IMG/VR virus record: IMGVR_UViG_2908567220_000004
Reading direction: 5' to 3' (one strand)
Length of the DNA stretch: 35,453 nt
From: a virus
Lineage: Duplodnaviria; Heunggongvirae; Uroviricota; Caudoviricetes
In this document: positions 29,701 through 32,700 of the stretch, piece by piece
How positions within the stretch are numbered: position 1 is the stretch's first letter
Layout of the letters: every line of letters starts with the position of its first letter
Program-made: the position numbers

Positions 29701-32700
29701 TCATGTGCCACCTCCATGCGGATACGACCAGCAAAAAAGCAGACGTGATCGCGCACCAGAGAACGGCGAGCATCGCGTTCAGACTCGGCAGCAATATGAT
29801 GAATTTTGGCGGTAATTGTCGGGCAATCGCGGCGAACTGCGGCGATAATCCAGATAAATTGCGGTTTTTGGGTAGGGGTAGTAGCCAGCATGTGGCAGCC
29901 TCCTTGTACTGGGAATTCTTCCCACCACCGGAGCTGCGAAACTCGCTGGTGGTGGACTGAACAGAGTTCGCAGTACCGGCGTACAAGGAAACCGGCCAGC
30001 CTTTCGGCTGCCCTGTCCAGCCCACCATAATTTTGCAAGCGACGCGGATTATAACCACATCACTGAAAAAAGTGTGAGTCTGGCTAACGGCACAAAAAAA
30101 GACGCTCGGCGCGTCATGTGTCGCCTCGTACATTTCCGGGCTGCGAAACCCGGCACCCGTTTTATGAGGTGCCTTATAACCATAAACCGTGTTGCCGCAT
30201 AACGGCAAGCTCTTTTTTATGGACTCCGAAAACTCACTATTGGAAGAACCAGAAGCACAGTACATCGCGCTCATTTCGTTAACGTCACGCGCGTGGACGA
30301 ATGTTTTTGTGGAGTCACTACACGAGCGGAAGACATCATCTACGACCAGAAATTTTCTGGCGCAGCCGCTGACCTTCTCAATGCTAATATCATCGCCCGA
30401 GATTTCTGGTATGGTTAAGGCATCCGTTCCGACCACCAGCAAATGATAAACTTTGCTTGTATCTGCTGTATTAATGCCTGACTTTGCCGTCATATTTCTG
30501 GATTTTGGCGACATGCCAGCCAGTGAAAATGTCTTCTTCTGGACGGGTATCATTGGTTAACCTCCGCGAACTCCTTCATGAAACGCGCCAGCGGTTGTAC
30601 GCATGGCGATTGATACCCGTCGCGATAAAACGTCACTCGGTTGTGAGACACGCTTTCGACAGTAACGAGTGCTCCGTGGGCATCTTTGTAGCGTTTTTGT
30701 GGTTGTGGTGTTCCTGTTGGCTTAGACATTGAGCGCCTCCAGACGCTTGGCGAGCCAGCGTTGCGACAGGCGGGTGAGTTCTCCTTTGCGCTGCTCATAT
30801 TCCATGCCCATATCAATTAACGTGATATTGGTGCTTTCGAGATATGAGAGGTGCTCAAGCTGTTCTGCGTTCATATGGTCGCGAGGTTCGCCAGAATAGC
30901 CATTTATCCGCGCCCACTGCTTAGCAGTTAGCCCACCAAGAACGATACGAGAAATCATATTGCTCTCGTTTGTGTAGTGGTGTTGCTGCGTCGTTTTACC
31001 CATCTCGGCACGGGCCATATTCAGCGCATCGCACATTGGCTTAAAGTTGTTTGCGGCACTGAGACGGGCTTTTAGCTGGCGACGATAGCGGGCGGCGATT
31101 TCAGGAACGCTACGCTGTAATTCTTCCTCGCACTGGATGAAATAACGGCGGATAGCGCGACCCTGATCATTGCGTTCGATCATTGCCAGTTCTTTCGCCA
31201 TTCCGACACTTAACAGATAGTCTTTGCCGGGTCTGCCAGAGTGCTTTATCTTGCTGTAAGCCGCGCCATTCGGGCTTTTCCCCAAATTTGGGGAAATTGT
31301 TTTATGGACTGAGTAATCGTGCCCAATGGTGAAGTCATATTCAGAGATGCGATCAGTGATCCATGTAGAGAAGTCTTTTCCCACGCCCAACGCTTTGTGT
31401 AACGCTTTTGCGCTAACAATATTGGTTTCACGCCCACCGATATGACCAGGAATAACCGGGACAATTGCGGCAAATTCATTACCGTTAATTGTGCCCAGAG
31501 AGGCGTTCAGATGAGGGGCGGCCTCAGAAATTAATCTGCTTTTTTCGATGTTCATTTTCAGTCTCCGTTAGGCGGCGTTAAACGCGTTCGGGTAGAGTTT
31601 CAGAATGTCGGCAATTTCCTGCTGAGAAAGTCCGTTGTGATCATTTATGTTCGCAAGATGGTTAACATGAGTGATCACTTTCAGAACATCACCACGGCAG
31701 GAGAAACGGTAGCGAAGGTGTGTTCCGATACCATCAGGATTCTTTTCGTCGATACGCTCCAGAGTGATTCCAAGCTGGCGTTCTAACTCTGTTGCATAGT
31801 TACGACCAGAAGACAGACGGCAGTAGCGAAGAATGTCATTTTCTGTCCATCCCTCTATACCAGTACGCAGCATATAGACTCGGGCACGATGCTTTTTCGG
31901 TGTGCGCTTTGGTGCTTGAAGGGATTTTGTAAGGGGCGTAATATCAGATACGCGAATATCTGAATTAGCCGCCTGTAATGGGCGGTTTTTCTTTTCCATC
32001 AGGCCACCTCGTCTCTAGATTCTAATATACACTTCTCAATCCATTCATCTATTTCAGACTCAACAAAAGCAATTGCCCGACTTCCAATTTTTACCTGTTT
32101 AGGGAACCTCCCCTGACTAATAAGACGATAAATCCATGCTTTGCTATAACCAGTTCGCCTTTGAACTTCAGAGAGACGAATTAATGAATTGTAATTAGCC
32201 ATTTATTAATATCCTGTACTAATGACGCAATAACCCCCTCCTGCAACGAATGGCGAGAGTTTTATTTGCGTCAAATGTCGAATACGCCAAAGACCACAAT
32301 ATGAAAAACATATTGCGGTCTTTTATAAAAGATAGTCAGATTGTTTTGGTTTGTTTGCTCCACAAGGGTAGAGCTACCCTGCATTTCGGCAGGATCACGC
32401 TATTAGGCGTGACATCCAGTAGTTTTAAAGAACAATTGCGCTTTGTCAGCGCCAAAGCCTGTTAAAGAACATTCCGCTTTTCAGCAGCGTAGAAGGCTCA
32501 ATACACCTTCGTTTATAAAAGAGCGATTGCCCTTCTCCAGGGCTAACTGTTAAATAGCAATCCTCTGTGAGTTTTTATCAATCTACTCCCCTATACTTTA
32601 GTAAACCTCTGTATACTTGTCCAGTTGTTTCATGCGTGTTTTTCAAACACCATATGCACCACATTTCCGCCATGCTCGAGAGAATCCATATAGTCGGCAT

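Follow-up and report, generated by a model that had tools for sequence, protein, structure and literature searches.

The virus record IMGVR_UViG_2908567220_000004 (Caudoviricetes; 35,453 nucleotides (nt), called the window here in its full length) carries on its minus strand, upstream of a primase operon, a leader region with two RNA genes, their candidate target boxes and a small icd/kil-like gene, all crossed by one long stop-free open reading frame (ORF). An initial annotation had proposed, from the sequence of this region, a structured immunity or regulatory RNA that pairs with repeated targets as the CI RNA of phage P4 does. A Rfam scan of the entire window at gathering thresholds bore this out. 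The C4 antisense RNA (RF01695) was matched over the complete model (1-87 of 87) with 81.1 bits against a gathering score of 45 (E = 1.4e-14), and the isrK RNA (RF01394) was matched upstream of it with 69 bits against a gathering score of 50. No further Rfam family was found at E < 0.004 within 29600-30700, and the c4-a1b1 family gave a weak match of 22.5 bits, under its gathering score of 46.7. When phage P4 (NC_001609) was searched in the same way, it returned C4 (the CI immunity RNA) and isrK (which covers seqA) in identical order, and the C4 match was followed there by a hairpin, a Shine-Dalgarno sequence and kil. Members of the C4 family are processed to a stable RNA of ~77-80 nt, with RNase P acting at the 5' end, and repress in trans; members of the isrK family bind Hfq and activate in trans. 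The C4 and isrK profiles have been reported to detect CI and seqA relatives in Gram-negative phage-inducible chromosomal islands (PICIs; PMC10111431), and IsrK has been described as a structural homologue of P4 SeqA with a processed RNA, STnc1160, downstream of it (PMC4825925). Because P4 yields the same two matches and the literature already links both profiles to CI and seqA, the analogy with P4 is right and the system is of a known kind. We are highly confident that the element is an immunity region of C4/CI-type and isrK/seqA-type RNAs. Neither RNA is annotated in the RefSeq records NZ_CM144238.1 (L002) and NZ_CP058220.1 (L001).

The complementary boxes of the region lie within the C4-type RNA and on both sides of it (Table 1). 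Two hairpins with the common loop GUUUCGCAG, already pointed out at 29922-29955 and 30136-30153 in the initial annotation, are both present; the latter is hairpin 2 of the isrK RNA and the former a seqC-like hairpin following C4. The word GUUUCGCAG (plus strand: CTGCGAAAC) has just two copies in the whole window, a1 and a2, against 0.39 expected. Box a' of the C4 RNA is the segment complementary to this target, and the ribosome-binding site of icd is complementary to the loop of C4 hairpin 2. The latter complementarity, between UCCUUGUAC and GUACAAGGA, had likewise been noticed before and corresponds to boxes b' and b2; the word is present three times against 0.19 expected. One segment (CCACCA, 29940-29955) serves both helices, as 5' arm in the a2 hairpin and as 3' strand in the closing stem of C4, so that the two are mutually exclusive in an unprocessed transcript. 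The isrK and C4 RNAs are separated by a spacer of 62 nt containing a hairpin with a TATAAT loop, whose G-U pairs work only on the minus-strand RNA. Most of the related loci described below keep this hairpin; in L007 and L009 a deletion of 39 nt that preserves the frame has removed it, and several other lineages lack it. Its role could be that of a second C4 promoter or of a processing signal.

Table 1. Features of the leader region and of the surrounding island in the window.
Feature	Position	Strand	Description
PLE-like promoter (putative)	30173-30218	-	A-tract 30218-30213; -35 TTGCCG 30208-30203; 18-nt spacer; -10 TATGGT 30184-30179
Alternative -10 of PLE-like promoter	30178-30173	-	TATAAG
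isrK/seqA-type leader RNA	30172-30095	-	RF01394; two 5' hairpins and intrinsic terminator
Box a1	30149-30141	-	GUUUCGCAG; decoy/target box in isrK hairpin 2, 30153-30136
Box b1	30131-30124	-	GUACGAGG; isrK linker
Intrinsic terminator of isrK RNA	30115-30094	-	stem 30115-30101 and U-run
Spacer hairpin	30064-30038	-	TATAAT loop; -14.1 kcal/mol, z = -5.1
C4/CI-type antisense RNA	30032-29945	-	RF01695; 17-bp closing stem, hairpin 1, hairpin 2; -45.8 kcal/mol, z = -4.9
Box b'	29989-29981	-	UCCUUGUAC; C4 hairpin-2 loop
Box a'	29973-29967	-	CUGCGAA; single-stranded C4 segment 3' of hairpin 2
seqC-like hairpin	29955-29922	-	-18.7 kcal/mol, z = -4.2; loop holds box a2
Box a2	29942-29934	-	GUUUCGCAG; seqC-like hairpin loop
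Small hairpin	29923-29911	-	precedes box b2
Box b2	29909-29901	-	GUACAAGGA; overlaps icd Shine-Dalgarno AAGGAGG (29905-29899)
Icd/Kil-like gene	29891-29697	-	64 amino acids (aa); ATG at 29891, Shine-Dalgarno AAGGAGG
72-aa gene	29704-29486	-	overlaps icd stop; in long-ORF frame, same stop codon
Long ORF ('Ash family protein')	30553-29486	-	355 codons; crosses promoter, both RNA genes and icd (+1 frame); ends at stop of 72-aa gene
tRNA-Thr(CGT) gene	34085-34010	minus-strand reading of island	island integration site
Tyrosine integrase	33844-32630	-	
AlpA-family regulator	32202-31999	-	
143-aa gene	between AlpA-family regulator and AntA-family antirepressor	-	
AntA-family antirepressor	31555-30722	-	
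DUF4222 gene	30732-30550	-	Pfam PF13973, E = 6e-25
TOPRIM/DUF927 primase	27526-24767	-	several small genes separate RNA region from primase
P22-like ejection-protein genes	within 19347-24005	-	gp7-like, injectosome translocase, 701-aa ORF; 3' of primase

The first well-supported gene of the operon had been placed at 29704 in the initial annotation, which overlooked the Icd-like gene upstream of it. The Icd-like protein matched NCBIfam model NF033153 (E = 3.7e-20; 71.7 bits against a cutoff of 25), the model that P4 Kil matches with 76.1 bits; the two proteins share 45% identity. In some RefSeq records the Icd-like protein is listed as WP_001304881.1. A tblastn search of the phage collection with this 64-aa protein gave no match, the query being too short and too divergent for a database of that size. 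Towards its 5' end icd is rich in C and poor in G (C/G 1.5-1.7 in the stretch 29900-29780). In P4 a Rho-dependent terminator, timm, lies downstream of the start of the first gene and is suppressed by translation; the composition of the icd 5' part would suit Rho. Upstream of the isrK RNA, the putative PLE-like promoter matches the P4 PLE (TTGCCT-18-TATAGT) column for column and is kept across loci in the alignment. This segment had been read earlier as a plus-strand hairpin with a T-run. A stem at 30192-30208 followed by a T-run does exist, but the palindrome is not conserved, and we rejected a plus-strand terminator at 30192-30218, which coincides with the promoter A-tract and the -35 element that align with P4 PLE.

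To avoid bias, relatives of the region were gathered via the Icd-like protein only. This gave 99 related loci, 19 from species-representative genomes of at least 13 enterobacterial genera and 80 from viral contigs, of which 85 were unique. A C4 RNA was found in all 19 genome loci and an isrK RNA in 18 of them. Among the 85 unique loci there were 30 distinct combinations of b' and a', with 11 different a' heptamers. Box a' was perfectly complementary over its 7 nt to a1 in every one of these 30 types and to a2 in 29, while b' was complementary to b2 over 8-10 nt in 28 of the 30; non-cognate combinations of boxes reached a mean complementarity of 4.5-5.2 nt. Pairs were counted on an alignment of the 30 types, with a structure that we specified ourselves. 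Overall 94.7% of cells were paired, compared with 74.8% in shuffles and 35-47% when partner columns were slid, and 34 of 48 pairs had changed on both sides. The C4 closing stem was paired in 100% of cells, with 10 of its 17 pairs changed on both sides, as were all five pairs of hairpin 1. The a2 hairpin, which competes with the closing stem, was paired in 96.9% of cells, and both of these helices showed covariation. Covariation also extended to the intermolecular helices: a'-a2 was 98.1% paired with 6 of 7 pairs changed on both sides, and b'-b2 93.7% paired with 7 of 9. Such a pattern would be expected of a heteroimmune RNA repressor and the targets it recognises.

The same pattern was seen at close range in six Escherichia coli islands that are 89-97% identical overall. 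Their flanking genes vary by 0.5-5%, whereas C4 and the segment with a2 and b2 (hairpin 3 and the Shine-Dalgarno sequence) vary in 49-53% of columns, and each box changes in step with its partners. Local variability together with co-varying boxes is the signature of heteroimmune cassettes, and the comparison suggests that immunity is swapped among these islands in cassette fashion. One complementarity put forward in the initial annotation, GGCAGCC/GGCTGCC, fared differently. Both words are present, the first in C4 hairpin 1 and the second, as GGCUGCC, after the Shine-Dalgarno sequence, but the complementarity is not conserved in relatives: GGCUGCC is nearly invariant, hairpin 1 has GGGCUUCUUCGGAAGC in most types, and the two do not co-vary. 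We therefore rejected this pairing, and the complementarity is probably incidental.

The long ORF was then considered over the same loci. Its ATG overlaps the TGA stop of the DUF4222 gene (ATGA, 30553-30550), and the first ATG overlaps the stop of the upstream gene in about 74 of the 85 loci. From upstream of isrK to the icd Shine-Dalgarno sequence exactly one frame was free of stops in 84 of the 85, and the other two frames in 0 of 170. The distance from the -35 element to the Shine-Dalgarno sequence takes seven different values, all multiples of 3, in 77 of 80 loci, and indels of other lengths in sub-segments compensate one another. Column shuffles put stops into about 14 of 29 sequences, compared with none observed, and not one of 1000 shuffles reached zero. 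The stop-free frame itself is thus conserved and no accident, and its sequence features resemble those of P4 eta. For eta, translation across the immunity region is stated to prevent termination in the part of PMC10111431 that summarises earlier P4 work.

The 85 loci fall into two classes. In 33 the long ORF is in frame with kil/icd and shares its end, as in P4, and in 52, including the window, it is in the +1 frame relative to icd, crosses all of icd out of frame and terminates at the stop of the next gene. The +1 frame over icd was stop-free in all 43 unique icd sequences of the +1 class, against about 25 expected from synonymous resampling, and in 8 of 33 in the P4-like class, against 7.6 expected. 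Openness of the +1 frame is therefore selected only where the long ORF uses that frame, which argues that the act of translation matters and not the product. No description of this frame-shifted class was found in a limited literature search.

These observations suggest a mechanism in which processing, repression, termination and anti-termination by translation are inferred from P1, P4 and Gifsy-1. In the quiescent state the leader would be transcribed constitutively from the PLE-like promoter inside the long ORF. Transcription would first form the isrK/seqA-type RNA with boxes a1 and b1, stopped at the intrinsic terminator, and the C4/CI-type RNA would arise by read-through or from a second promoter that the spacer may hold. 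As in P1 and P4, it would be excised as a stable molecule of ~80 nt. Its b' would pair with b2 on the icd/kil-like ribosome-binding site and its a' with a2 in the loop of the next hairpin, and they would also pair with b1 and a1. Such pairing would block translation of icd, and the untranslated C-rich RNA would terminate prematurely, so that the downstream small genes and the primase would stay off. The short isrK RNA would serve as an extra target or a decoy. Upon induction of a helper, transcription from the upstream alpA operon would run into the region, and because the long ORF begins at the ATGA overlap with the DUF4222 gene, ribosomes would already be on these transcripts. Their passage through the RNA block and icd would prevent the structures and pairings and shield the RNA from termination, and the replication operon would thereby be expressed. 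Of the genes transcribed from the leader promoter, the icd/kil-like gene would probably be translated first, and the RNA repressor would act on it directly. We judge it rather likely, by analogy, that the P4-like mechanism operates in full at this locus. That the region as a whole is best explained as the immunity (early-operon control) region of a P4-like or PICI-type satellite island we consider very probable.

Several points weigh against this interpretation. Promoter, transcript ends, RNA processing and read-through of the terminator are all predictions, and because a generic sigma-70 scan made no call at the PLE-like site, the promoter was assigned by the alignment with P4 only. In the window b1 and b' can pair only with the help of one G-U pair, and one U is bulged where a' meets a1 and a2. 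Unlike in P4, the long ORF and icd/kil are in different frames, and the P4 mechanism is taken here as far as a secondary summary sets it out (PMC10111431). Furthermore, the sign of the isrK contribution is uncertain because the Gifsy-1 homologue is an activator.

It is also conceivable that the 355-aa ORF encodes a genuine Ash-family protein, for instance a Bro-network regulator, whose amino-acid sequence is important and for which the RNA-like features are secondary. RefSeq places an 'ash family protein' (WP_000613398.1) over both RNA genes and omits icd in many records; Pfam PF10554 (Phage_ASH) matches aa 124-232 with 99.7 bits against a cutoff of 26; Phage_ASH is listed among the Bro-network domains (PMC10111431); and the conserved openness of the frame could be read in the same way. 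However, the RefSeq versions differ, one giving the 355-aa ash protein without icd and another an ash pseudogene fragment together with the Icd-like protein. The Phage_ASH match (nt about 30184-29858) is exactly the RNA block from the promoter -10 to the Shine-Dalgarno sequence: it spans the -10, isrK, C4 and the a2 hairpin, up to the first icd codons. In P4 (L003, 4169-4585 and 3889-4176) what this family matches is the obsolete ORF of a 'cI protein' overlying the CI RNA, and P4 epsilon matches PF25738 instead, although a satellite survey had equated Ash with P4 epsilon and used PF10554 as its detection marker (PMC8628076). The initial annotation had described the translations of two open minus-strand frames as not protein-like. 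Selection at the amino-acid level, which it had named as evidence against the RNA reading, was looked for over the 355 codons and not found. Variable sites are spread evenly over the codon positions (15/12/16 in C4; entropies 0.86/0.81/0.92), with no excess at third positions. The ratio of nonsynonymous to synonymous substitution rates (dN/dS) upstream of isrK is 0.5-0.7, no better than in the wrong frame, whereas the neighbouring DUF4222 gene has 0.07-0.14. N-terminal parts differ between loci in length and sequence, and their sole conserved motif, SIKKGLP, falls on the A-tract and -35 element of the promoter; at the C-terminal end, one class of loci encodes Icd itself and the other icd read in a shifted frame. 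With codon-position variability, dN/dS and the column shuffles taken together, we rejected a genuine 355-aa protein at the level of amino-acid selection. The product of the long ORF is, as judged from these comparisons, not under ordinary protein selection, and we consider an Ash protein as the explanation of the locus quite unlikely. We give about even weight to the view that the Ash/eta frame is kept by selection only for the passage of ribosomes while the encoded sequence drifts. Phage_ASH would then be largely the translation of RNA genes, its use as an epsilon marker a mislabel, and the frame-shifted class an undescribed variant of P4 eta anti-termination.

A further alternative concerns the RNAs themselves, which might act as in Salmonella Gifsy-1 (isrK - orf45 (STnc1160) - anrP), outside any repressor circuit. 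There, too, an isrK-family RNA with a terminator is followed by a structured read-through region with complementary sequences, and the short IsrK is documented to activate translation of orf45/anrP, so that this mode of action has experimental precedent (PMC4825925). The isrK match in the window has a terminator of its own, and through its a1 and b1, which complement a' and b', free isrK could titrate out the C4 RNA or compete against the pairings in cis. On the other side, b2, which co-varies with b', directly covers the ribosome-binding site of icd, and this is the geometry of the P1 and P4 repressors. The genes downstream differ from those of Gifsy-1, and the surroundings, with integrase, alpA, primase operon and eta-like ORF, are P4-like and not the antQ/anrP context. 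The two mechanisms are moreover compatible, in that isrK may be a decoy setting the threshold of the repressor. Action of the Gifsy-1 kind alone appears unlikely to us. It would be exceedingly improbable that this copy is an inactive relic whose RNAs are recognisable but non-functional. The island does adjoin a second integrase and phage remnants, and strain 83972 has a pseudogene in place of one neighbouring gene, but the boxes, the stems, the Shine-Dalgarno sequence, the icd gene and the long ORF are all intact in the window, and about 300 E. coli genomes carry the sequence of this locus with at least 99% conservation. We retain the repressor circuit of the P4 type as the preferred reading.

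Compared with the P4 immunity region (PLE - seqA - cI RNA - seqC - kil/eta - alpha primase), the window has the same order of elements and the same two Rfam families. The promoter aligns with PLE, target boxes lie on both sides of the RNA, and the first translated gene is homologous. In both, a long ORF whose ATG overlaps the stop of the preceding gene (ATGA) extends across the entire immunity region, with the primase operon downstream; P4 eta starts in the same way at the stop of P4 ORF88. The differences are in detail. Box a' is CUGCGAA here and UUCUCAC in P4, and b' is CCUUGUAC here and CCUGUGAA in P4; because the box sequences differ, so does the specificity. The spacer between isrK and C4 is shorter than the 107 nt of P4. 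The long ORF is coupled here to the DUF4222 gene and not directly to the alpA/vis homologue, the AntA antirepressor and the 143-aa gene intervening. Furthermore, eta and kil share frame and stop in P4, whereas the long ORF here is +1 and ends with the following 72-aa gene, and the primase here has the TOPRIM/DUF927 architecture.

The immI region of P1 and P7 (c4 - icd - ant) is likewise similar in having a C4-family RNA with a' and b' that is preceded by boxes a1/b1 and followed by a2/b2; b2 covers the ribosome-binding site of icd, and an icd-like gene comes directly afterwards (for the P1 c4-icd-ant operon, see PMC8198154). It differs in that a replication/primase operon is controlled here and not the Ant antirepressor, that the AntA-family gene precedes the RNA block, and that the c4-a1b1 profile matches poorly. 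The 'Bro zones' of Gram-negative and helper-embedded PICIs (PMC10111431) and the EcCIMP1-like islands (PMC11773190) share with this island the integrase, alpA, an antirepressor, an 'Ash family protein' and the primase, as well as captured P22-like late genes. The PICI literature differs from our description in treating Ash/eta as a protein gene, and this island and its specificity type are not individually described there. The RNA element has a specificity of its own but belongs to an already known and widespread kind of switch.

The island is built like P4-like satellites and Gram-negative PICIs, EcCIMP1 among them (PMC11773190). The same DNA (99-100% identity) adjoins proA and a tRNA-Thr gene in the RefSeq records of E. 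coli ABU 83972 and KK19-02, the latter with 100% identity in the region of the RNAs. A relative of the 321-nt block is carried by 2621 of 5426 complete E. coli genomes. Besides the P22-like genes a DUF2824 gene follows the primase, and a second tyrosine integrase lies further along the window (19347-24005 (-) and 14112-15275 (+)). The ejection-protein genes and the second integrase suggest captured late genes of a helper and/or tandem elements.

The RNA finding itself adds little, because the switch is textbook P1 and P4 biology and detectable by current RNA-family models; the added value lies in the side results, namely the ORF that may be kept for translation only, the frame-shifted class, the mis-annotation in Pfam and RefSeq, and the possible pac fragment described below. 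In RefSeq a 355-aa protein takes the place of the two RNA genes and the Icd-like gene is often missing, and about half of the complete E. coli genomes carry a related block. The Pfam Ash family, in use as the 'epsilon' marker of P4-like satellites, appears actually to track the immunity RNA region. Near-identical islands with many co-varying specificities make up a natural set of orthogonal pairs of RNA repressor and target, and with them one could test cleanly whether anti-termination by translation is by itself enough to preserve an ORF.

A captured pac site that would serve P22-like helpers may also lie within the N-terminal part of the long ORF. The segment 30299-30405 (+), antisense to the ORF, agrees at 97 of 107 positions (91% identity) with a P22-like small-terminase gene of 489 nt from another E. 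coli, over nt 268-374 of the latter. Nucleotides 269-285 of that gene fit the published P22 pseudo-pac pattern, and the homologous 17-mer of the window, AATGTTTTTGTGGAGTC (30300-30316), is 2 positions off it. Exact matches to the pattern (AAGATTTTTCTGACATC or AAGGTTTTTCTGACATC) were found at the equivalent place in other island lineages, on the sense strand of the N-terminal part of the long ORF in L014, L087, L015 and L045; these are 4 matches in about 153 kb searched, against about 0.2 expected, in loci that are related in pairs. The island also has P22 gp7-like and gp20-like genes, and for EcCIMP1-like PICIs the mode of packaging is reported to be unknown (PMC10996546, PMC11773190). Far from the regulatory region, Rfam matched the cspA thermoregulator with 156.5 bits at 1206-1645 (-), over the 5' untranslated region and gene of a cold-shock-protein type.

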